Shown here one piece after another: positions 1-18,988 of a stretch of DNA of 20,000 bases. The position numbers were made by a program, and so were the translations under genes. The DNA comes from Craspedostauros australis (lineage: Eukaryota). The notes beneath the pieces are model-generated. The model saw only the letters and a program-made list of their open reading frames with translations. It ran no database searches and was not told where the DNA came from. The stretch spans positions 48,615 to 68,614 of the forward strand of contig JALAGF010003803.1 of assembly GCA_030167865.1 (NCBI GenBank). The letters are read 5' to 3'. The first letter of the stretch is position 1; the number at the start of each line of letters is the position of its first letter.

Positions 1-534
1 CGTCTCGCAGCCCTCGAACGGGCGTCAGAATGGCTCAAGTCGGTGCAACAGATCGAAGGAGAACGCAATGTCTCGACGACATCCAGATCGTACCTCAGCA
101 TCCTGCAAGCCGCGAGCCGAGCAACGACGCGCAGTGAGAATGATCTGCGGGCCAACGTCATCGCGCTGGAGACGTTGCAGGACTTCAAACGCACCCGGTT
201 CGACTTGGACCCCCAGGCCTACGTACTGGCGCTGAAGGTGACGATGCAGGCCTTGGGCAGGGCCCCTCGCGGTCAGAAGGATGTGTGGTTGGCGTCGCTG
301 ATGGATCTGTTGCACGATTGCTGCAACGAAGGGTTGATGTGTGCTGCCGCGGTGCGAACGTTCGCCAATGTGCACTGGAGCAAGGACGGTGCCTGGACAC
401 GCGCCGAACGTGACCAGGTGGTCAAGCGCTTCTTTTCCGAGTGGCCCTTGCCATCCTCGTGGACGCGCAAGTTAAAATTCACGCAGTTTCTTCCTCGCAA
501 GGAAGATCTGCAGCGGAACTGGGGAAAGAAATAA
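1..534 (+). CDS. 3' part of a helical-repeat protein, probably pentatricopeptide-repeat (PPR) type; 5'-truncated by the window edge
   Basis: Frame 1 is open from base 1 (RLAALERASEWLKSVQQIEG...) to TAA at 532-534. It has helical segments (RSYLSILQA, QAYVLALK) and a C-terminal 'CCNEGL...LPSSWTRK' signature that resembles the ends of diatom PPR proteins (recalled, not searched). Confidence 0.6.
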   Translation, partial: RLAALERASEWLKSVQQIEGERNVSTTSRSYLSILQAASRATTRSENDLRANVIALETLQDFKRTRFDLDPQAYVLALKVTMQALGRAPRGQKDVWLASLMDLLHDCCNEGLMCAAAVRTFANVHWSKDGAWTRAERDQVVKRFFSEWPLPSSWTRKLKFTQFLPRKEDLQRNWGKK

Positions 535-780
535 GCTGCAACGTGGCGCATGCATTTGCTCTGAAGTTGAGTTGGACATACTTAGTCAAAAATACGCTTC
601 AATTCACCACTACGTACGTAGAGAGGCGCAGTCGCTTGAGTATCGTAAGCTTTCAATGTTTACCAAGACTACCGATACACTGTTCTCCTACAGTAAATTG
701 CTCTCTATTCTACAAGTACCTATCCCAGAGAGCAGAGTAGGTAGTATTGGTTGAATGATCCACAAAGGTATTTGCACATT

Positions 781-846
781 GTGCTTGTCGGATGGACCTT
801 GACAGTAGGCCAAGAATGTCTATCGTCATTCGACAATCGAGCAAAA
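781..846 (-). promoter_or_regulatory. Candidate SECIS element in the 3' UTR of the MSP-like gene
   Basis: Minus strand: ATGAC (829-825), then GATAGAC pairing with GTCCATC (one mismatch), an ATT bulge, CTTGGC/GTCAAG closing loop CTACT, then CGAC (790-787). This fits the RUGAN...NGAN core. A weak lower helix TGCT/AGCA is possible. The canonical apical AA is absent. Confidence 0.45.
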
Positions 847-977
847 TGAAACGTGGATCTGATTCTCGAATCTCACGTTGCTTTCCTTTGGTGACCTTCA
901 GATTTGTGCTCCATGCGCACATGCGTGCATACATGGTGCGGTGTTGTGTCGAAGGAACAGCGCTTCACCGCTCTATT

Positions 978-2043
978 CTACTTCGATCGTTGATCGTATG
1001 CGTACAGAGCTGGAGTGATGAAGGGGGACGGAAACAGCGACCGAGAGATATCGGCGTGCGAAGTATGGGTTGAGCGGTGGAAGAAACGGGGCAGACAGAC
1101 ATCATGTTAGGTAGCCGAATGAATGGAATCTGAATGAATGGAATGAACGAACCGATCATCGTACAACTGTGGTACAATCGCGCCGCCACATTCATTTGTT
1201 TGCTCAATACCAACACTCACCATACAGCACCGCCCCAACGTATGCCATCGACGACGCCGTCGCATGCGGCAACGCTGCAAACGCGGCCGACGCCACGCCG
1301 CTGCGCAACGCAGAACCAGCATTCATGACGTTGACCCTGTCCAAAATCGCGCGGGCGACATCTGGATCCTCGATGCGGGTCATACCCGTACCATCGACGT
1401 CCCAAACGCCAGCCTGCGCGATATTTCACAGACCCGTGCGCGACGAATCCCTGTATCCGGCCGCAAAGAAGAGCGGCAGCACGACGAGGAATCGCGTGGC
1501 GAAGTCCGTATCTGTGATGGCCGTTACGAAGGCGTAGGCAGCTGCGACGTAGGTCGCTTTTGTGCCGGCCTCGGAGCGTCGCTGGCGTTCTTCCGGGCCG
1601 ATATTCTGCAAGTTCCGTGCGGCTTCTTGACGCAGGCGGGCAGTTTCTTCGGGCGATACTGCCTTGGATGGATCGCCGTCCTCCATGAGGAAGCCGTATT
1701 TGACGGTCTTGCCTTCTTGGAGACCCATCATATCCAAGTACGGAAGCAACCAAGACATGAGTCCAGTATTCTTGAATGGCTCCTTTGGTTGTTCTGACCC
1801 AGACGATACAGCTTTCGTCAGTAATGGCGTTGACGTCGGCGTTGACGCCGTTTGTGTCTCTTCATCAGCTGTTGGAGTGGATCCGAGGCGGAACGACGCC
1901 GATGTCGACGTCAATATCGATGAAGCCTGGGAAGAACCCGTCGATACCATCCGTTGTGGTACCATCGGTGTGAATGCACCTGCTTGTTGAGATGCACACA
2001 CGATGGCGACCATCGCCCCGACGGCAGCTGATCGGACCTTCAT
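978..2043 (-). CDS. Predicted membrane selenoprotein (MSP-like), 284 aa, Sec at codon 206 (TGA 1428-1426); exons 2043-1221 and 1009-978; bipartite plastid-targeting presequence
   Basis: Starts at accATGAAG (2043). Signal peptide MKVRSAAVGAMVAIVCASQQAGA|FTP is followed by an S/T-rich transit region, NIGPEERQRR and two hydrophobic helices. Then ...RTGL-TGA-NIAQAGVWDVDGTGMTRIED... continues in frame. Donor G|GTGAGT at 1220 and acceptor CAG at 1012-1010 join to ...VLYALYAYDQRSK-TAG (855 nt, divisible by 3). Confidence 0.8.
1010..1220 (-). other. Spliceosomal intron (211 nt) in the MSP-like gene
   Basis: GTGAGT donor, CTAAC branch-like motif at 1110-1106, pyrimidine-rich tract and CAG acceptor. 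Contains CATT/CATTC simple repeats. Confidence 0.75.
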
Positions 2044-2625
2044 GGTGATGCTGAGGTGTGGAGGCGGTGACACAATCTGGCAACTCGAAATAGCGCACTG
2101 GTCAATTTCAGTTTCTTCTCAAATAATGTGAGCTGGCCTCTTGCACAGCGTCGGTGTCCGTTTCGGCTCCTTGAGAAGCATTACTCTTCATCGCGATCTC
2201 GGTGAACGATGACGACGACGACGATGATGACGCTTTCACCGACAACACTTGTCTGGAACTGTCCACATCATCGAAGGAAAGAACGGTTGTGACCATTGCG
2301 TGGTTGGTGTTGCGTTGTTGTTCTGTTGTGTGGTGGTTGATCTCGATGCGTCAGAACATGAGACATTTCTGAAACGACCAATCGTGTGTGACTCAATCGA
2401 CTTCATAGTCGTACAAGAAACGAATCCAGAACTGCAACTGAACCAAATTGCCGAACCAACAAACGAGGTTGTCGTCAACACCAAACAACGAACACCAACA
2501 TCAACGTCAACATCAACATCGATCGGGATTCGCAACTGCACAACCCGAACATCCAGGAGAGATCCAGAGAAGAAAGAAAGAGAAAGGAAGAGTCCTTGCG
2601 GATTGCCTTTGTTCCAATCCAACCC

Positions 2626-2759: not shown

Positions 2760-3638
2760 ATGAAGATCGCAACCCTTTCCTTGGCACTGCTGTTCGCAAG
2801 CAACAGCATCGGCAAATCATCGGCATTCGCATCGTCGCGTCCAACATCCGTGGCATTTTCTAACGCCAGAACCCAGCTGCACTCGTACCAGGATGATGCA
2901 CCCTCCGATTACGATCAATCTGATCTGGTCTCCTCAACGCAGGATCTGGTCGTCGACGACGACGAGAACGACGTCATCATCCGCGAGGATCTCAAACGCG
3001 AACTGCTGCTGCTCGCGAGCATCACGAACCGCGGCGAGTACGCGTCGCGCGAGGAACGCGACATCGTCGTGGATCTGGTCACGCAGCTCGAGGCCCTCAA
3101 TCCAACCGCCGAACCAGCCTCGAACGCCAACGGCGAATGGGATCTGTGCATCAGCTCGACGCAATTCTTCCGCAGCAGTCCCTTCTTCCAGGCCATCCGC
3201 GTGGCGGCCGGCGACAACAACAAGGCCTACGCCGAGAACTTCTTCGATCTGCACGACCGCGCCACGGCAGCGGGACGCGTGGGGCGCGTGCGTCAGATCA
3301 TCACGCAGGACACCATGATCAGCGAGGTGGATCTCGAGGTCGGCGTGCTGCCGGGATTGCCGATCCGCTTCGACGGCACGGTCGTGACGGATGCGGAGCT
3401 GTCCATCCGGTCGGCCGATTTGTGGGAGCTCAAGGTGCGCAACACGCAGGTCAAAGGTTCCAACATTCCCATCCTCAACCAGCTGATGGACGATCTCAAG
3501 GTGGATCTGCCTGTCGGTGACTTTTACGATCAGATCGGCTCGTCGCCGGTGATTCCGATGAAGACATTCTATGTTGACGACAGTCTGCGTATCACGAGGG
3601 ATATCGACGACAACTTCTACGTCTTCAGCAGAGCGTGA
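2760..3638 (+). CDS. PAP/fibrillin (plastid lipid-associated) family protein, 292 aa, plastid-targeted
   Basis: Start at acaATGAAG (2760); signal peptide ...GKSSA|FAS. Fibrillin motifs LKRELL..ASITNRG, LVTQLEALNPT..P....NGEW, and C-terminal YVDDSLRITRD..DNFYVFSR. Confidence 0.9.
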   Translation: MKIATLSLALLFASNSIGKSSAFASSRPTSVAFSNARTQLHSYQDDAPSDYDQSDLVSSTQDLVVDDDENDVIIREDLKRELLLLASITNRGEYASREERDIVVDLVTQLEALNPTAEPASNANGEWDLCISSTQFFRSSPFFQAIRVAAGDNNKAYAENFFDLHDRATAAGRVGRVRQIITQDTMISEVDLEVGVLPGLPIRFDGTVVTDAELSIRSADLWELKVRNTQVKGSNIPILNQLMDDLKVDLPVGDFYDQIGSSPVIPMKTFYVDDSLRITRDIDDNFYVFSRA

Positions 3639-4378: not shown

Positions 4379-6040
4379 ATGAGCGCCAATGCAGATGCAG
4401 ATTCAACGCTTGCTCCATCGGCAGACGTGGAGCAGCCAAACACCTCCAACGGAGAAGCTGAGCCAGCAGCAACAACAACAACGGTGACAGGAGCAGGAAC
4501 ATCTCCCGATGACGCCGTGAGTGATGATGATGAGGCGCGCAAGGGAACCATCTGGTCGGCACGGTTCAACATCCTTTCCACCATGGTGGGGGGAGGTTGC
4601 CTCTCCCTCCCTCTCGCCTTCCAGCAATCGGGAAATGCGTTGTTGGGACCCATCCTTCTCATCGTCATCACGCTCATCACCGATTTCTGCTTCCGCCTGC
4701 TCGTCGAGAGTTCGAAGGCTCACAGCGGCGTCGATCACAATCGTCGCGGAACGGATTCCTTCGAGTCACTCACCAGCGCGGCCTTCGGACCATCTGCCTT
4801 CCTTTTCTCGATGGCGCTCGTCACGTCCATGTGCTTCTTTGGTACCGTCGGATACTGCGTCTTGCTGCGCGACATGCTCAAGCCCATCACGGATTCCGTG
4901 CATGTCTTCGAAGGCTGGGATTGGCTGCACAAGAACCTCTGCATGTTCGTGGTCGTCCTCGGCGTCACGCCGCTCTGCACTCTCAAGACATTCACTGCAT
5001 TGCAGAGTTGCAACGCCACCAGCATGCTCTCCATCCTGATCCTGGGATCTTCCATCGTCTTTCGGTCCATCCAGTGCAACATCGCCTCCGCCACGGGTTC
5101 CTCGGATTCCGATCTGTTCGAACAGTTCGCCACCGCCACTGCCAATTCCGGCCCCTGGTACTCGCATTTGCGGCCGTTCCCAGATTCGGCGAAGGAGGTT
5201 CTGGATGCGCTGCCGCTCTTCATCTCCTGCTACGTCTGCCATTACAACATCCCCTCGGTGCACAACGAATTGCGCGAACCCTCACCGATCCGAGTTTCCT
5301 GGTGGCTGAGAAGCACGGCATGGACAGCCTTTGCACTCTACATGGTCTTGGGAGTTGCAGGATCCATGTACGGCAATTGCACGGAGACGGGCAAAGTGCA
5401 AGGCAACGTGCTGTTGGACTTTGACGAAGACGACCCGCTTCTGCTGGTCGGGCGCATGTGCCTGGCGTTGACAATCACGCTGGCATTCCCCATGCTCATC
5501 ATTCCTGCGAGAGATATCGTCATACGATTCATGATGGACAGCAGCGACGATGCTGACGCCGATGGCAACGATCGCACACCGAATGTCACCAGTGGACCAG
5601 CCACGTCCGCATCACCTTCATTGTTGGAAGGCCAAGAGGCGTTGGAGGAGCCGCTGCTGCAGGCATTGGATCCACCATCTCATTCCCCTGCCGATTCTTC
5701 AAATGATGTCGCAATTTCAACGGACGATGATGCTCCAGTGGCAGCATCCGCTCCCATCACAACGCGCCTCGCCGTCGCAGTTGCGATATTCTGGACCGCC
5801 GCCGCGTTCGCCAGCAGCGTGCAGAGCATCGACACGGTGTGGGATCTCCTTGGGAGCAGCCTTTCCATCCTGCTGTCGTACCTCCTTCCATGCGGAATCT
5901 ACCTCCAGCTCACCAAGGATCAGGAGGGCGGGGATCATGCCAACTCCAGAATCCTGGCCTGGGTCATCATCGTCGTCTTCACCCCGCTCATGTTCATCTC
6001 GACTGGCAATGCTGTTTACAACACCGCCACGGGGCAGTGA
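4379..6040 (+). CDS. Amino-acid transporter, Aa_trans / SLC38-AVT family, about 553 aa
   Basis: TM1 motif GTIWSARFNILSTMVGGGCLSLPLAFQQSG; LPLFISCYVCHYNIPSVHNEL; GNVLLDF; about 11 hydrophobic segments. ATG at 4379 follows a CA-rich leader. Confidence 0.9.
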   Translation: MSANADADSTLAPSADVEQPNTSNGEAEPAATTTTVTGAGTSPDDAVSDDDEARKGTIWSARFNILSTMVGGGCLSLPLAFQQSGNALLGPILLIVITLITDFCFRLLVESSKAHSGVDHNRRGTDSFESLTSAAFGPSAFLFSMALVTSMCFFGTVGYCVLLRDMLKPITDSVHVFEGWDWLHKNLCMFVVVLGVTPLCTLKTFTALQSCNATSMLSILILGSSIVFRSIQCNIASATGSSDSDLFEQFATATANSGPWYSHLRPFPDSAKEVLDALPLFISCYVCHYNIPSVHNELREPSPIRVSWWLRSTAWTAFALYMVLGVAGSMYGNCTETGKVQGNVLLDFDEDDPLLLVGRMCLALTITLAFPMLIIPARDIVIRFMMDSSDDADADGNDRTPNVTSGPATSASPSLLEGQEALEEPLLQALDPPSHSPADSSNDVAISTDDDAPVAASAPITTRLAVAVAIFWTAAAFASSVQSIDTVWDLLGSSLSILLSYLLPCGIYLQLTKDQEGGDHANSRILAWVIIVVFTPLMFISTGNAVYNTATGQ

Positions 6041-6623
6041 GGAGATGATGTGGCAGAATCCGCAAAAGTAGAGCTGAACGGCTCCAGCTAATTGCAGCGC
6101 TATGTGACTCCGCATAGCCAACGAATGGTAGTGTCCTACTCAACTTAACCCCATTCCTCGATACTCAAACACAGGCGCCTCCTTGGATTATTCGGTGTTG
6201 CCATCCCAGTGTATACCCATGATCATGCGAGCCAGAGCTCTTCTGTGCATGGTATTGACGGGGGCATGATGGCCTCTCTGTTCACTCCTCAAGTATACTG
6301 TACTCCATCATTCCGTACTCCTTCGTATCACCTGGCGCCTGACGATTCCACTTGTTGTGGGTGGCAAAATGTTCGCCGTCTGTCGTGTCACCCAGTCATG
6401 CGTGTTGAGGCGAAGCAGAACATCTGTTCTTCTGTTCTTTGGGCGCGTTCCTTTCTCCAACCAACCATCTGCGGAGAGAGACACTGCAACCGAAAACGCA
6501 AACGTCGATGATGGCCATTCGCATTCCTCCACCCACCCTCTCTTCTTCTTGGCCATCACAAACAGAAACAAAGCACAAAGCAGCACAATAGCGACGCAAC
6601 GCAAAGCAGGCTACCCACCCATC

Positions 6624-8269
6624 ATGATCCTCCGTTGCACGACCCTTGGTTTGGCAAGCCTCGCCTTTGGCGCCATCCACTCGGAGGCCTTCCTGCATCA
6701 CCATCCACCAGCATCCGCTTGGGCGCCAACGAGAGCGGAGGTCGGTTCGGCACAATCCGCCAATTTTCGCCGGGATTTGGCGCCATTGTCGCGCAACGCC
6801 CTAACAACAACGCAGCTGCGCTCCTCCACCTTCCCCTCGTCCTCCGGCACCGTCAAGCTCCCCAACGCCACGAAGAAGAAGAAGCTCAAGGCCTTCGTGC
6901 GGTACCTCGAGATCGAGTGCTGGAAACGCGCCGAACTGCGAGAACTGGAGCCCGTCCTGCAGGCCGTGGCCGATGCCTGCAAGCAAATCAGCCGCATCGT
7001 TCAGCGCGCGCAGACAGATGATCTGTACGGTGTGGCAGTCGACAAGACGACGGGTCAGCCGCTGGAGGACAACGTTCAGGGCGAAGTGCAGCAGCAGCTC
7101 GATGTGCTGTGCAACACCATCATGCTGCGGGCCTTTTGCGGCAGCAGCAAGTCCATCCATGCGGTGGCGTCGGAAGAGGAGGATACGTGCCGGTGTTGTT
7201 CGACGATCATGGTCAGTGGTGCGCTGAGTCGTACTGCATGGAACAGTGTAGATTGCTGTGTTGTGAGCGTTGGCTGTTTGAGGCTGATGGCAGGTGACAT
7301 GGGACCTGCCGTGCCATCGGCGTGAGCAACGAAACTACTGTGATGATTCATTCTTGCCACCCTACTTTGCAATACGTACGCAGACGCTTACCACATATGC
7401 AACACATTGTGCTTGGCTCCACTCCACTCTGCTCTATGGAAATCGCTTTGCTTTTGTCCACCTTCATCGCAACTCATTGAACACAGGGAGATACGGCATT
7501 CGCAGTGGGAGACTACATCGCTGCGTTTGATCCCATTGACGGATCCAAGAACATCGACGCTTCGCTACCCGTAGGTTGCATCTTTGGAATTTACAAGAAG
7601 CCACCCGGCGAGATTGACGAATCCACCTTCCTGCAGGACGGCAGCCGCCTCGTGGCTGCTGGCTATTGTTTATTTTCTGCCACCACGGTGCTGGTCTTGT
7701 CCTTGGGCTCAGGCGTAGATGGGTTCACGCTGGATCCCGATCAGGGCAAGTTCCTTCACACGCTAAGAGACATGCGCATTCCCTCATCCGGAGCCATCTA
7801 CAGCGTCAACGAGGCAAACTACCGAGAGTTCGACAAACCCGTCCAGGCCTACCTCAACTCGGTCAAGGAGCACAAGTCAGCATCCCACCTGAAACCGCAA
7901 GCGCGGTACGTCGGTGCCTTGGTGGCGGACGTCCACAACGTGCTGATCAACGGAGGAATCTACGCCTACCCCGCTACGCTATCAAATCCAACCGGCAAGC
8001 TCCGGCTCCTGTACGAGTGCGCTCCGATGGCATTCATCGTTGAACAAGCCGGAGGAGCGGCATCCACAGGTTCGGGACGTATCATGGATGTAATGCCCAC
8101 TGAGATCCATCATCGTGTGCCCTTGTTCCTCGGCAGCACGGACAACGTATTTGGGTTGGATCAGTTCTACAAGTATCACGGTGATGATGATGACGATGAT
8201 GATGACGATGACATTGATGAGGATGAAGCACAGAGGCAACAGTTGCCTTCGGATAATTTGCATCCTTGA
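6624..8269 (+). CDS. FBP: Fructose-1,6-bisphosphatase class I, predicted plastid-targeted, 456 aa; exons 6624-7211 and 7487-8269
   Basis: Motifs NVQGEVQQQLDV, ASEE, FDPIDGSKNID, YSVNEAN, ARYVGALVADVH and GKLRLLYECAPM. Signal peptide ...IHSEA|FLH (also ASA|WAP). A phase-0 intron joins the two ORF-track pieces. Confidence 0.92.
7212..7486 (+). other. Spliceosomal intron (275 nt) in FBPase
   Basis: ATG|GTCAGT donor and ACACAG|GGA acceptor. Splicing gives a continuous ...STIM-GDTAFAVGDYIAAFDPIDGS. Confidence 0.85.
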
Positions 8270-11504: not shown

Positions 11505-12926
11505 TCAGCATGCGGCTTCATGATCGGCGCCACGCAACGGTGTGCGGACGAAATGAATGTTGCACCATCCCTGATTGCCACGATGCGACCAGATTCGCGT
11601 TTCCCGAACATCTAGATCATCACGATCGTAGCTGACCGTGGCCTTGGTGCCCATGATGAATTCGATCTGGGCGTTGCGAATGTTGGTGGCATTGCCTGGT
11701 TGCTCCTGCTTTTGGAAGACGTCTTTCTCAGTGAAGAATTCACCGGCGCACAGACGTTGGTACTGGGTTTCGTCGTTGGTTTCGACGGCTTGCAACAGCT
11801 TGGCGTTGGCGTGGAGGATGTCATCCTGCAGGAATGCATTCATCGCGGATTGGGTGTCGTCCCAAACCTCGTCCAGGGGTTGATCAGCTTCGATGTCCAC
11901 GACGTTGAGGGAGGCAGTAGATTTTTCGATGATGCGCAGGGTGTCGATGACGGGCATCGTGTCGCCTTCGAATGTCGCGAAGCGCTTGCGCAAGCTCTCG
12001 AGGTTGTCGTCGGACCGTCCGGATTTCTTGGCGCGGCTGAGGATGCGTTGTTCGAGGACGTCGAGGGGGCACTGGTAGACGAGGACGCCGAGGATGTTGG
12101 AGACGGATTGCATGCACTTGGTCCATCCCTCCAGGTTGTCAAAGTTGCGCGGAAAGCCGTCGACCAGGAAGATGAGGGACTTGCCGTCGGCCTCCTTCAT
12201 GGCGTTCTGCAGCAAGGCCAGGGAGATCTCGACCGGCACGATCTTGCCACCCACGAGGCATTCCGATATGAGCTTGGCGTGCGGCGAGTCCTCCTTGCTG
12301 GCTTCGCTGCGCAGCAGCTCTCCGGCAGACAGATGCACGCATGGGTAATTTTGCAGGAGCAAATCGCTCTGGGTTCCCTTGCCGGCGCCAGGGCCGCCCA
12401 ACACGAAGAGGACGCGATACTGACCATCGTCGTTGCTACCATCAGCGTCGCTATTGTTCTCACCGTCAGATGAAACTGCCCCGACATTGATCCTGTACTT
12501 GAGCCCGCCGAAGTCCAGCAGATCCGAAGCATTGGCAATACCGAGCGATTCGCCCGCCACCTTCTCCATGAAGTCCGTGAGAGATTGCTGCGGTTCCGGC
12601 TCGATGGATTTGGTCGCCACGGATCGCAGAGTTTGGAATCGACGATTCCAGGACAGCGACAGCGATGATGCTGTTGATGAAGACGCTGTCGTGATGGACG
12701 CAGCGTTATGATCATACATTCCACCACGAATCTTGAGGAGTTGCGTTGCTGCTGCCGTGGAAGAGTACGCCGAAGCCGATGCTGCGGCGGCAACGGGGGA
12801 AGTCCTCGCGAAGGACGCAAAGGCGCGCGATCCCATGGCCTTGCTCGCGAGCACGAAGGAACTCGTCATGGCTGGTCGCTGCATCAGGATGGTGGAAACG
12901 AGCGCGATGGCCAACGTGTACTTCAT
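11505..12926 (-). CDS. UMP-CMP kinase / adenylate kinase family protein with an N-terminal targeting presequence and a C-terminal CaMKII-association (NTF2-like) domain, 473 aa
   Basis: P-loop VLFVLGGPGAGKGTQ, HLSAGELLR, GKIVPVEI, FLVDGFPRNFDN and short-lid GRSDDN. The C-terminal ~100 aa read ILHANAKLLQAVETND..Y...ATVSYDR..RETRIW...W.NIHF.R. Confidence 0.88.
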   Translation of the reverse strand: MKYTLAIALVSTILMQRPAMTSSFVLASKAMGSRAFASFARTSPVAAAASASAYSSTAAATQLLKIRGGMYDHNAASITTASSSTASSLSLSWNRRFQTLRSVATKSIEPEPQQSLTDFMEKVAGESLGIANASDLLDFGGLKYRINVGAVSSDGENNSDADGSNDDGQYRVLFVLGGPGAGKGTQSDLLLQNYPCVHLSAGELLRSEASKEDSPHAKLISECLVGGKIVPVEISLALLQNAMKEADGKSLIFLVDGFPRNFDNLEGWTKCMQSVSNILGVLVYQCPLDVLEQRILSRAKKSGRSDDNLESLRKRFATFEGDTMPVIDTLRIIEKSTASLNVVDIEADQPLDEVWDDTQSAMNAFLQDDILHANAKLLQAVETNDETQYQRLCAGEFFTEKDVFQKQEQPGNATNIRNAQIEFIMGTKATVSYDRDDLDVRETRIWSHRGNQGWCNIHFVRTPLRGADHEAAC

Positions 12927-14639: not shown

Positions 14640-17291
14640 CTACTCTTCATCCGACCAATCAATGCCCATCTGCACTTGATCTTCTTCCGCCAACGCTTCC
14701 GGATTCTCGACGCCCGTTGGCTGCTGCTTGCGTTGCTTCTTGGCCTTCTTGCGTTGCTTCTGCTTCTTGGGCTGCTGTTCCGCGCTGCGTTTCTGCGCAG
14801 GTCGTGTCGCGACCTCCAAACGCTTCTCCTTCAACACGGCCGCGTTCCAGCGAGCTCCCATGCTCGGTGTTTGGATGGGCTTCAGGATCTCCAACCGCTT
14901 CACATCCTTGGGTGCAATTTCGGTCAGCTTCGAGCGACCCAGCACGGCGGCCTTGCTGAAACGTTCCGCCATGTCGATGCAGCCCTTGGCGTAGGCTCTC
15001 CAGCGGGCGTTACGGGTGTCTTTGGCGAACTGTTGTGGATGTTTGTTAATTGTTGTGTTGTGTTGTGTTGTGTTGTCATGGATGGATGATGGAAGAGAGG
15101 AGCCATGGAGGAGAAAGTGAGGGATGCTGGTTGGTCTCAGCAGTGAATGGCATTTGTTGCGTTGCAATTCCTTTGACAGGGGACTACATTTCCACGTCTA
15201 GGCGCACGTTAATCCATGCCAACACCAAGGTCGGCAACAACGTCATGAAAACTCCAACCAACTGCAACCGCAAACATGACAGCAAGTCCAACAAATGCAC
15301 TTGCAGCATGCACATCAACGTACCTTCCGCAACCGTTGCACCACCCGCACCGAGAACTCTGGGAAACCCGCCGAGTATCGGTACAGATCCATCTCTCGGT
15401 TCAGCAAGACGAAGAGTTCCGACACGCACATCTCCAGCTCTTCCATGGTGCGCAATGGCGAATCCGCCCGCAACTTCAGTGTGACGGAGAGGGATTGGAT
15501 GCCCGCCTTGTCCATCTTCTTGGCCTGTTGGTACAGCTCCTTCGTGTCCAATGCATCCAACAGGATAGAGGTCGTGGGCAGGAAGACTTCGGCGGCGCCG
15601 GCGAGCTGCTGCAGCAATCGGATGCAATGCAATCGCAGTGGCAAGTACCGGGCGGAGGGAATCATCTTGCACGTTCCGATGATGACCTGCGACAAGGGGA
15701 ACAGGAGAGACTGCAAGAGCTGTTCCTCGCCGGTGGCATCCTGGCTTTGGCATGCCGCCGTGAGCACGGCCACCCATAGCTTGAGGCAGTGCATGTATTG
15801 CCAGCAGTACACGACAGCAAATGCTTCCTGCGTCTTCTTTTGCATCGCCGAGCGCAGATGGAGGGCGAGCTGACGGATGTAGATGAAGGCGTGTTGATAG
15901 GATGAATGGTAGTCGAGGCTGTAAAGTTCCACGATGCAGTTTCCCATGAAGGTGAGGGTCGGCAAGGAGGCGGTCGAGGATGCGGTGAATTTGGCACGCT
16001 GGGCGTATGCCAAGTACACCTTCTTCAAGCTCGTCTCGATGAAGGGGAATGGTTGCGTGAGGGCCAGCTGACGTATCCTGAGGAAGGCGTGCAAACGGAC
16101 GACCTGGTAGTCCTCGTTGGCGTCGATAGGTGCGCTCCACAGCGTGACGAATGCTTTGAGAAGGGACTCGGAGAGGCGTGGGAATGGACTGCAGTATGGG
16201 AGGTAGCTGACCAATGCCTTCAGGACGAAGGCGAGCAGATCTGGCTCCTTGGCTTCGGACAACAGATGAATCGCCGCTCGCAGGAAGGTTTGGATGATTG
16301 GTTGCACCTGTCCCCAACGGTTGGACTTTTCCATCTGTTTCGGCTGGATGGGCTTGTTTGGATCAATCTCCTCGCTGTCACCATCTTTGTCTGCCGCTGC
16401 TTCCTCATCGTCGTCGGCATCACCATCGGCACTATCACTGTCACTACCACTGTCACCCTCAGAATCTGTTGCTTTCCGAAGAAGATGATAATGGAATTCT
16501 TCATGACAACGTCCCAACGCGGTGACCATCAAATGATCAAACACCACCGACGATTCGATGTGGTATTTGTTTGCCTTCGCATTTTCAGCCTGATCTGCAT
16601 CGGCCATGTGGCAAGCGGCCTTGAAGACGTTGACGTACTTCTTCAATCCCTTGACGCCATGCGACTTGAATGCACCCTGCTCCATGCGCTTGAGCACCTT
16701 CGAAGTCACAAGTGTCACGCCTCGTTCGAGTGGCTCACTTTGCTTCTGATCGTCTGCCATGACATCTTCATCTTCATCATTATCATCGTCTTCAAAGTCC
16801 AGAATGCTCTGGTCGTTCTCCTTGAGGAACTGGTGGAATTCCGGATCGTTCTCGATCTCCTGCTTCATCTGATCTTCGACAGCGCCAATGTCTTGCTCTT
16901 CGTCGCTATCGTCGCTGTCTTCCTCGTCGTCGCCGTCGTCGTCATCATCGTCATCGTCATCATCGCTGCCTTCTTGATCCTCAACTTCGTCTTCCTCGCT
17001 CTCTTGCGCGGCATCCTCATTCTCTTCCACCGCGCTGGAAAAGAAGGACTCCAAATCGAGGTCGCCGAGATTCTTCTTGGACGTCAGATCTTCATCGTTG
17101 CGCTTGTATTCGAGTTCATCGGCGTAGCTGTTCCCAGCCTTGATGGCTTTCTTGATGGCACGGTCGTTGGCGGCATCGCTGCGTCCCTTGCGCTTCAGCT
17201 TGCCCTTGCTGGTGATGGTGCCCTTCTTGAGGCGCGACGAGACGCCTCCGCTGCTTTGGAACTTGCGGGCTCGCTTGGTTTGTTTCGGCAT
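14640..17291 (-). CDS. NOC2: Nucleolar complex protein 2 homolog (60S biogenesis), about 785 aa; exons 17291-15324 and 15029-14640
   Basis: Basic N-terminus, long acidic tract, DPEFHQFLKEND.S.LDF, SYQHAFIYIRQLA.HLR, VY.WQY.H.L.LW, RY.PLR.H and FPE. Intron AAG|GTACGT...CAG|TTC joins LRK-FAKDTRN. Confidence 0.93.
15030..15323 (-). other. Spliceosomal intron (294 nt) in NOC2
   Basis: GTACGT donor at 15323 and ACAACAG acceptor ending at 15030; phase 0. Contains a (CAACA)n repeat. Confidence 0.85.
15051..15077 (+). repeat. (TGTGT)n-type pentamer microsatellite in the NOC2 intron
   Basis: tgttgtgttgtgttgtgttgtgttgt, read directly. Confidence 0.75.
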
Positions 17292-17603: not shown

Positions 17604-17800
17604 CCGACAACAACATCACCAATCCAACCAAAGAAAGAAGCAAGGAAGAACTGATGGATTCAGAGTGATTGGACCGTCATCTGACCGCACCGCCATCTTC
17701 GTTGGCATCACAAGCATCACCGACGCCAACGCTGGCCTGAATTTGTGCTCTCCATCATCCCCATGCGATGTCTGCCAGCACATCCTCGCGTCGTCGCATC

Positions 17801-18988
17801 ATGACGATTGGTCACAACGCGCTCACGCTTGCGTCGGCGTTGATCCTGCTGCTGATGCCAATGCAGATGCTTGTGCCCGTCGATGCATTCAAGATCCCCG
17901 TCTTCTTCGATTCTACGAACGGTTTGCACCGCGACATGCAGTACCATCCGGAGCAGGCAGCTCGCATCGAGCTGTGCGTGTCGACGCTGGAACAGCAGAT
18001 ACCCGACAAGGTGGAGCTTTACGACGTGGCGCCGGAGGCTCACAGCCAACAGCCACTGTCGGAATCGGCCAAGCCGTGGTACTTCACAGGAGACGAACTG
18101 GCACACGCGCGGGACATGCTGGTCAAGGCGCACAGCGAGGAGATGGTGGCTGGGTTGGAACAGCGTTGTCACAACTCGCGTCAGCAGCGCATCGAAGAAG
18201 GCAGGGATGCGTTGGGCTTTGTCGGATACGTCGACGCCGACACCTACCTCACCACCGAAACGTACGACGTCTGCCTGCGTGCCACAGCCTCATGGATCCG
18301 TGCCGTCGACGAATCGACTTCCGTCAACAACCCCATTCAAACAGCATTCGCCATGACGCGACCTCCTGGTCACCATGCCACGCCCTCGTTGTCCAATGGT
18401 TTTTGCTTATTCAATTTCGCGGGGGCCGCCACGATCCACTATCTCGAACAGCACCCAGAGGCCAAGGTCTCCATCCTTGATTGGGATGTCCATTACGGTC
18501 AGGGCGTCGCGAAGATCATCAGACAACACGATCGGGCGCGCTACGTGTCCATCCACCAGTCGCCCGCATTCCCCTACATGGCAAATCGGAAACGGATCAT
18601 GGGGGATCATGCCAACGTTCTGACGCTGCCCATCCCGGCAGAAAGCACATGGACGTGCGGGTACCACACGGTGCTGAAGGATGATGCCTTGCCCTTCCTC
18701 CGTACGACGGGAGAATGGGAACCAGATCTCGTCATCGTTTGTGCTGGATACGACGCCCTGTCCGCGGATGAATTGGCCAGCGTCAATCTCAATGCCAAAG
18801 ATTACGGTGCGATCGTGGAAGCGCTGATGGACCATCTGGATGATGGACAAAGTGCCACCAGCATCACATTGGGTTTGGAAGGTGGATACCAGCTGAAGCA
18901 TGCCCCCACGACAGGGAATCTTGCCGATGCTGTCGTCGAGACGCTTGAAAGCTTGCACCGGCGGCTTGGACCACCTCCTGATCAATAG
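17801..18988 (+). CDS. Zn-dependent histone deacetylase family (class II / HDA14-like or bacterial-like) deacylase with a signal peptide, about 395 aa
   Basis: Motifs HPE..RI, DTY, RPPGHHA, GFCLFN, ILDWDVHYGQG, SIHQ, PDLVIVCAGYDAL..D.L and LEGGY. ATG 17801 gives signal peptide ...LVPVDA|FKI; an upstream in-frame ATG lies at 17768. Confidence 0.88.
   Translation: MTIGHNALTLASALILLLMPMQMLVPVDAFKIPVFFDSTNGLHRDMQYHPEQAARIELCVSTLEQQIPDKVELYDVAPEAHSQQPLSESAKPWYFTGDELAHARDMLVKAHSEEMVAGLEQRCHNSRQQRIEEGRDALGFVGYVDADTYLTTETYDVCLRATASWIRAVDESTSVNNPIQTAFAMTRPPGHHATPSLSNGFCLFNFAGAATIHYLEQHPEAKVSILDWDVHYGQGVAKIIRQHDRARYVSIHQSPAFPYMANRKRIMGDHANVLTLPIPAESTWTCGYHTVLKDDALPFLRTTGEWEPDLVIVCAGYDALSADELASVNLNAKDYGAIVEALMDHLDDGQSATSITLGLEGGYQLKHAPTTGNLADAVVETLESLHRRLGPPPDQ

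Follow-up and report, generated by a model that had tools for sequence, protein, structure and literature searches.

A probable selenoprotein gene with UGA at codon 206 in Craspedostauros australis, a member of an algal selenocysteine/cysteine family

A minus-strand gene in a 20,000-nucleotide (nt) stretch of Craspedostauros australis DNA most likely encodes a 284-residue selenoprotein, in which the UGA at codon 206 would be decoded as selenocysteine (Sec, U); we give this reading a probability of roughly 0.78. The stretch, which is called the window here and to which all coordinates refer unless a locus is named, comprises positions 48,615 to 68,614 of the forward strand of contig JALAGF010003803.1 in the NCBI GenBank assembly GCA_030167865.1. 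The gene belongs to what is, judged from the sequences of its members, a conserved Sec/Cys family common to green and red-plastid algae, and for this family the Sec reading is strongly supported by the state of the aligned codon. The coordinates of the features are collected in Table 1.

The open reading frame (ORF) that ends at codon 206 occupies 1426..2073 of the minus strand, has its first ATG at 2043 and closes at the in-frame TGA 1428-1426. If this TGA is read as U, the translation of 2043..1200 continues from U206 through NIAQAGVWDVDGTGMTRIEDPDVARAILDRV... and NIAQAGVWDVDGTGMTRIEDPDVARAILDRVNVMN..., giving 68 stop-free codons (207-274). The next in-frame stop after codon 206, in the context GECWY-TGA, is positioned within an intron, the donor of which is formed by TATG followed by GTGAGT (boundary 1221/1220) and the acceptor by CAG followed by C (boundary 1010/1009). 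Beyond the acceptor the frame ends with TAG at 980-978, and the coding length amounts to 823 + 32 = 855 nt, or 284 codons plus the stop. A 960-nt contig of the public sequencing run X1 fuses 1856..1221 to 1009..686 with zero mismatching letters and omits exactly 211 bases, which read CT..AC on the plus strand and GT..AG on the gene strand. The contig has a depth of 26, keeps the TGA and contains no alternative letter over 1221-1856. The label of X1 as RNA is a guess, and it is the absence of the intron in the contig itself that marks spliced RNA. The contig displays this exact junction with the TGA present, which establishes the splice and shows that splicing does not remove the TGA. X1 contigs extend the transcript to at least 2153 upstream and at least 686 downstream; positions 603-685 have no X1 contig cover and are uninformative on the transcript end. 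The second exon contributes a terminal ALY..D that is similar to the C-terminal ALYF..D of relatives. The gene is expressed, spliced and nuclear, and it comes from a diatom-like alga. The first-pass annotation, which was made from the letters of the window alone, had described an ORF that is ended by TGA 1426-1428 and followed by about 68 protein-like codons in the same frame, and this is borne out by the translation and by the homologues in frame. It had also placed a GTGAGT donor, a 1220/1010 junction and a short last exon up to TAG 980-978, all of which recur in the spliced X1 contig, as does the retained TGA that was to be looked for in RNA-type reads; its 284-residue model with U206 is supported by the sequence and by the X1 junction.

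The state of codon 206 in relatives is the evidence that carries the Sec reading. A Pfam search of the window protein gave no match. A HMMER pass over 1.84 billion representatives returned 282 relatives at E<=1e-3, and 129 of these also reach E<=1e-10; the database names of the relatives all read "hypothetical protein". The counts for the aligned column cover 151 relatives (P0003-P0153). In 95 of these, the protein terminates in G-L or G-M and thus directly before codon 206, and P0145 and P0151 begin just past it. The column in the remaining 56 contains C in 29 (P0031, P0120 and P0131 being doubtful), W in 12, S in one, V in one, L in two, E in one and a gap in ten, so that about one fifth of the protein relatives have Cys at this site. 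The 12 W forms are probably a gene-caller artefact in which TGA was read under another genetic code; P0014, for example, equals the ORF of metagenome locus L007 (93-869) but for one W, where the DNA reads TGA. The window protein retains the family-conserved residues 3' of the TGA (alignments A3 and A8), and because homologues match the conserved block after the TGA in the same frame, the continuation of this frame is more than chance. A word-filtered protein search with the window protein yielded three matches including its own truncated ORF, P0002, the filter being coarse for this family, and the same kind of search with a 70-row alignment yielded two, one of them again P0002. An atlas search with the Cys homologue P0005 led to unnamed clusters of Bacillariophyta and Chlorophyta with scores of 0.84-0.86, which are to be taken as leads only.

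The same codon could also be read directly as DNA. Metagenome contigs were scanned with Q[AG]GxWDVDG, a pattern from the core of the most conserved block, which begins four codons past the site and is blind to codon 206 itself. Of the 164 stretches that matched, tblastn confirmed 114, and 80 were retained. TGA stands at the aligned codon of all 80 loci, and TAA or TAG occurs in none. Its flanks are conserved and in frame throughout these loci, the codon being preceded by S-[AG]-x-x-G-[LA] and followed by N-[IVM]-[AG]-Q-[AG]-G-x-W-D-V-D-G. Such an alternation of TGA and Cys at a single conserved position is what comparative work accepts as the mark of a selenoprotein family.

The earlier expectation was that homology would reach beyond codon 206 in both directions and that homologues would show Cys or TGA at this codon, and it held among the 151 protein relatives and the 80 loci. 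Automatic annotation had also been expected to cut short or mis-splice such genes, and this is seen both in the 95 of 151 relatives that are cut and in the models of Coccomyxa viridis and Elliptochloris bilobata. Models that end at the TGA include the 205-residue P0002 of the window, the NCBI-sourced P0158 and P0161, and 150-residue forms on up to 36 contigs. The NCBI models P0202 (Coccomyxa viridis g11217) and P0203 (Elliptochloris bilobata) jump from the region of the first hydrophobic helix to ...VWDVDG and omit the Sec stretch, which looks like a false intron that was placed to dodge the TGA. Each public model seen for this family stops at the TGA, is broken into two pieces or avoids the TGA by splicing. 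Genes for selenoproteins commonly escape annotation, and restored models would add a conserved selenoprotein to algal selenoproteomes. As the selenium demand shapes the growth and blooms of phytoplankton, the gene set behind this demand matters.

Recoding of UGA would require a selenocysteine insertion sequence (SECIS) element in the 3' untranslated region (UTR), and such elements are evident in many relatives. Among the 76 loci that contain a stop, 35 had a hit in a crude scan for xUGA...GA two-helix structures that starts no more than 140 nt past the true stop; four further loci run off the contig without a stop. Folding revealed, in many loci, hairpins built on an AUGA or GUGA core, which lie 23-134 nt past the stop. 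The AUGA type is found in a stramenopile-like group (L003/L005, L004, L006, L008, L009, L010, L011, L012, L014, L015, L017 and L045), and a GUGA type with a long mini-stem in a GC-rich, prasinophyte-like group (L024, L037, L039, L040, L053 and L078). PMC2375036 describes SECIS elements of Ostreococcus with a G before the quartet and a long mini-stem, and this shape is the same as that of the GUGA type in the prasinophyte-like loci. Rfam gave no SECIS match in window 1-2200, but as it also missed the evident hairpins of 20 related loci, this blank is uninformative. A covariance model (R1) built on eight related SECIS elements matched only its training set and one duplicate and was too specific.

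In the gene of the window, the covered 3' UTR (977-686) contains four UGA triplets and one AUGA (829-826), and the sole SECIS candidate, 845-771, is atypical. The first-pass annotation says nothing of a SECIS, which is the doubtful feature of this gene. Its helix I would consist of 5+1+5 pairs, UUUGC.C.AUUGU with ACAAUG.UGCAAA. The 5' loop CGAA is followed by AUGA and then C, with C-GA-CAAGC on the 3' side, and helix II has 3+3 pairs, GAU-A-GAC with GUC-C-AUC, around an A/C mismatch. Above helix II there is a bulge of AUU, and beyond it an upper stem of 6 bp with a loop of 5 nt. The candidate thereby keeps the two-helix architecture and the GAAUGAC context of the family, and it lies 148 nt past the stop. 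It passes an ungapped pattern test in which 8 or more of the 10 positions following the core must pair and helix I must contain an uninterrupted run of 5 or more pairs, thresholds that were set post hoc with the candidate in view; the same test is passed by 6 of 218 ATGA sites in the window, 12 of 2000 UTR shuffles and 3 of 16 real relatives. A scan with a much looser pattern produced hundreds of sites and was non-discriminating. L001, the nearest Sec-type relative by tree path, has no strong SECIS either. It contains a weak candidate at 2360-2425, which has the 9-mer GAAUGACGA and a GAC-AA 3' side in common with the candidate of the window, and the GAAUGACGA element of both may be a lineage-specific SECIS variant. 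Whether 845-771 is a working SECIS is, in our estimate, an even bet; if it works, the accepted shape of eukaryotic SECIS elements would be widened. Two other structures were rejected. The fold around AUGA 1325 (1249-1340, minus strand), which lies in the coding exon about 100 nt past the TGA, has an irregular stem in GC-rich Ala codons and lacks the AA, and its folding energy, which ranks 1/231 and 4/234 among the AUGA sites, was taken as chance. In a long-range stem of the UTR fold (900-885 with 765-750), the UGA is engaged in Watson-Crick pairs.

Several observations weigh against the proposed decoding in this particular gene. Strict, energy-ranked and per-core scans of the minus strand over 1-1260 gave no canonical SECIS in 977-686 or down to about 300; what they did return was weak or paired over a long range. 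Helix II of the candidate comprises about 7-10 positions with two mismatches, the apical AA is absent, and the folding energy is ordinary, with ranks of 125/231 and 74/234 among the AUGA sites of the window and hence a stability no greater than background. X1 possibly derives from the same strain as the assembly and is not independent proof of the TGA base. The Kyte-Doolittle values of the helices in the window protein stay below 1.4 outside the signal segment and under the usual transmembrane threshold, whereas peaks of 1.6-2.0 in relatives point to insertion into a membrane. In a quick maximum-likelihood tree of 100 full-length rows, the well-supported, stramenopile-type clade that includes the window protein mixes Sec and Cys forms (35 rows, with 17 Sec, 11 Cys and 5 W), partly in adjacent Sec/Cys pairs (P0005/L001, P0010/L009 and P0003/L002), and the window protein stands alone on a branch of 0.52. 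The interleaved forms and the lone branch therefore leave room for a recent nonsense change in a Cys gene, which would explain the poor SECIS. According to this alternative, a SECIS-less, Cys-type ancestor underwent a recent TGY-to-TGA change, translation ends at residue 205, and the locus encodes a truncated protein or is a young pseudogene; Cys forms are indeed common among the nearest relatives, and it is a Cys form, P0003, that has the highest identity to the window protein (46-48%). However, all family-conserved residues past the TGA are intact, the phase-1 intron joins in frame to a family-like C-terminus, and the gene is transcribed and spliced. Also the uniform TGA in the loci that were read as DNA, the presence of an AUGA/GA two-helix candidate of a kind that few background sites match under the post hoc thresholds, and the 9-mer shared with L001 speak against a nonsense allele, which we regard as improbable. 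Should 845-771 be non-functional, the gene would represent a rare snapshot of selenoprotein loss.

Decoding of UGA 206 as Sec is likewise favored over stop read-through or another form of recoding, in which Trp, Cys or Arg would be inserted at UGA. The W written by gene callers in 12 relatives could be cited for such a mechanism, but the single W that was checked against DNA, that of P0014 versus L007, is a TGA under another code, and the non-stop alternative in the family is Cys with the few exceptions listed above, as in a Sec/Cys family. SECIS hairpins occur in relatives, and TGA is a normal stop in this organism. In the window, the genes for PAP_fibrillin and Aa_trans both terminate in TGA, and each matches its Pfam profile in full (positions 2-197 of 198 and 1-407 of 410, respectively), so TGA is not reassigned here. 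Stop read-through or recoding to another amino acid seems highly improbable to us. There is no tRNA gene in the window. A trivial explanation would be that one base of a Cys codon was misread in sequencing or assembly, as TGA differs from TGC and TGT by one base only. The X1 contig, possibly from the same strain, has no other letter at its depth of 26, however, and TGA at this site is the family rule, which makes an error a very remote prospect.

What the protein would look like if UGA 206 is decoded as Sec is suggested by a structure model. In an AF2 (AlphaFold 2) model built on a 48-row alignment, the predicted local distance difference test score (pLDDT) exceeds 90 for residues 90-274 and has an overall mean of 83.4, and the predicted template-modeling score (pTM) is 0.68. 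The N-terminal part of the model is a small beta/alpha piece. It is followed by a first hairpin of a long helix, 150-176, and a helix 188-203, after which G204-L205-U206 opens a short helix, 207-211, and a beta turn runs through WDVDG; helices 227-256 and 260-273 form a second hairpin. A Foldseek comparison of the model with the PDB gave no match at E<=1e-3, and in a wide VIA-align search the best Z was 5.5 and all matches were generic helical bundles. Pfam has no model for the family, and none of the solved structures is similar to it. It is plausible that it is a membrane protein, in which the mature part would consist of the N-terminal alpha/beta piece and the two moderately hydrophobic helical hairpins. 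Two helices separate the N-terminus from the Sec loop, which would put both on one side.

The protein begins with a hydrophobic signal-like segment that ends in AGA before F24, and similar junctions are found in many members of its clade, such as ATA/FAP, TDA/FTP, VSA/FAP and VDA/FTP. Green-type members begin with Arg/Ser/Ala-rich stretches instead. We take the AGA/F-type start to be the bipartite plastid presequence of diatoms and algae with plastids of the red lineage, and the Arg/Ser/Ala-rich start to be a chloroplast transit peptide. The presequence would thus direct the protein to the plastid. This plastid reading rests on inspection of the sequences, as counts of N-terminal motifs were non-discriminating (31/35 in the clade versus 22/65 outside).

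A link to glutaredoxin is provided by gene fusions. Three different ORFs (Table 1) carry a glutaredoxin domain with a CPYC motif at the N-terminus (PF00462, E 1e-16 to 3e-18) and continue in the same frame into the family protein. Among the conserved columns of alignment A8, only one contains Cys or Sec, namely C206, and there is no second conserved Cys. From the fusions and the single conserved Cys/Sec we propose that a single selenol is recycled via glutathione and glutaredoxin, and the chemistry of the family is probably tied to glutaredoxin. The lone Sec at the start of the short helix just past the first hairpin, on the side of the N-terminus at which the glutaredoxin domain is fused, would act as the only redox-active selenol of the protein; its oxidized form would be a selenenic acid or a selenenyl-sulfide, and the reduced state would be restored by glutathione and glutaredoxin, like in reductases or peroxidases of the 1-Cys type. 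In combination with the plastid-type presequences, the fusions give a hypothesis for the function, which is that of a glutathione-linked selenol enzyme at the plastid membrane. Two Cys forms, P0021 and P0032, possess an insertion after the NIAQ block that adds a second Cys (..SSSC.. and ..GLSC..), and no other member seen has a cysteine that could serve as a partner.

1-Cys peroxiredoxins, glutathione peroxidases and methionine sulfoxide reductases are recycled by glutathione or glutaredoxin. Like them, the family has one catalytic-type Sec/Cys without a conserved resolving Cys, and in addition it has the glutaredoxin fusions, but no similarity to these enzymes in sequence or fold emerged with Pfam, Foldseek and VIA-align. 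SELENOK and SELENOS are small membrane selenoproteins of the endoplasmic reticulum. They are also membrane-associated (which is a prediction for the family described here), contain a single Sec and lack a thioredoxin fold. However, they have one transmembrane helix and a Sec near the C-terminus in a disordered tail, whereas the AF2 model places an internal Sec at the start of a short helix between two hairpins, and the presequence of the window protein looks directed to the plastid.

The first-pass annotation had related the gene to the membrane selenoprotein MSP, an assignment that is not supported in that form. PMC2375036 (Lobanov et al. 2007) reports MSP from Ostreococcus, Chlamydomonas, Volvox and Dictyostelium, lists none for Thalassiosira pseudonana and states that MSP "had two Sec residues", leaving it ambiguous whether this applies to the whole MSP family or to Dictyostelium only. 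According to PMC7539508, MSP occurs almost exclusively in the Sec form and diatoms carry 20-44 selenoprotein genes, and PMC6681478 mentions an annotated "membrane selenoprotein" of Volvox. No description of the MSP sequence, nor anything relevant to the WDVDG and NIAQAG motifs, turned up in the literature searches made. By these descriptions, MSP resembles the present family in being an algal selenoprotein without an assigned function that is predicted to be membrane-associated and is present in Ostreococcus. It differs in having two Sec and nearly always the Sec form (PMC2375036, PMC7539508), whereas the present family has one Sec, Cys in about one fifth of its members and many members of the stramenopile type; both the gene of the window and the read-through ORFs of the loci have one in-frame TGA each. 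Because the family is common in Mamiellales-like DNA with classic SECIS elements, it is in all likelihood one of the four selenoproteins that were new in Ostreococcus in 2007, MSP or the hypothetical proteins 1-3, and it has probably been catalogued under some name already. The chance that it is MSP itself is about fifty-fifty, and the single Sec speaks against it if two Sec are a trait of the family. A more far-reaching proposal is that the family is not MSP but an undescribed family of plastid-targeted selenoproteins of green algae and algae with plastids of the red lineage, which would have a fold without a solved counterpart and a selenol at the membrane surface that is recycled by glutaredoxin, would guard or repair components of plastid membranes, and would rely, in the lineage of the window and L001, on a divergent SECIS whose helix II is short and which lacks the apical AA; this we put forward only tentatively and consider rather unlikely as a whole. 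New in any case are the link to glutaredoxin, the plastid-type presequences and the finding that no similar structure has been solved.

Table 1. Coordinates of the gene, of its neighbors in the window and of the glutaredoxin-fusion ORFs in metagenome loci. Positions are those of the window unless a locus is named.
Feature	Position	Strand	Basis or remark
5' UTR, at least this far	2044..2153	-	X1 contig (record 3) over 1858..2153, 0 other letters; first in-frame ATG 2043
Coding exon 1, codons 1-274 and first base of codon 275	1221..2043	-	Sequence, X1 contig
Hydrophobic signal-like segment, codons 1-23, ending AGA, then F24 (AGA/FTP)	1975..2043	-	Sequence
In-frame TGA, codon 206, probably read as selenocysteine	1426..1428	-	Aligned codon TGA/Cys in relatives; kept in spliced contig
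Most conserved family block, codons 207-218, NIAQAGVWDVDG, immediately 3' of the putative Sec codon	1390..1425	-	Alignments A3 and A8
Intron, 211 nt, GT..AG, phase 1	1010..1220	-	X1 contig joins 1221 to 1009
Coding exon 2: rest of codon 275, LYAYDQRSK, TAG	978..1009	-	Sequence, X1 contig
3' UTR, at least this far	686..977	-	Same 960-nt X1 contig
Atypical SECIS-like candidate	845-771	-	Constrained folds; 5' AUGA 829-826, 3' GA 789-788
Aa_trans amino-acid transporter	4379-6040
FBPase N-terminal piece	6369-7325		ORF stops short of profile end, probably continues past intron
Adenylate-kinase family protein, long N-terminal extension	11505-12926
Noc2	15315-17291		ORF stops short of profile end, probably continues past intron
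Histone-deacetylase family protein	17768-18988
Glutaredoxin-fusion ORF	L031 997-1956 (same ORF in L033)		PF00462
Glutaredoxin-fusion ORF	L035 294-1337		PF00462
Glutaredoxin-fusion ORF	L066 13-1080		PF00462

Two genes adjoin the putative selenoprotein gene. On its 5' side, a PAP_fibrillin gene for a plastid lipid-associated protein (2760-3638, plus strand) is arranged head to head with it, with about 700 bases between the start codons. The PAP_fibrillin product also has a signal-like start, with an SSA/F junction, so that two adjoining genes have plastid-type presequences. On the other side, a convergent gene is located at 1-602 on the plus strand, with its stop TAA at 532-534 and an X1 contig over 6-602. 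Its product has no Pfam match, and its 3' end comes within about 85 bases of the covered end of the putative selenoprotein transcript.

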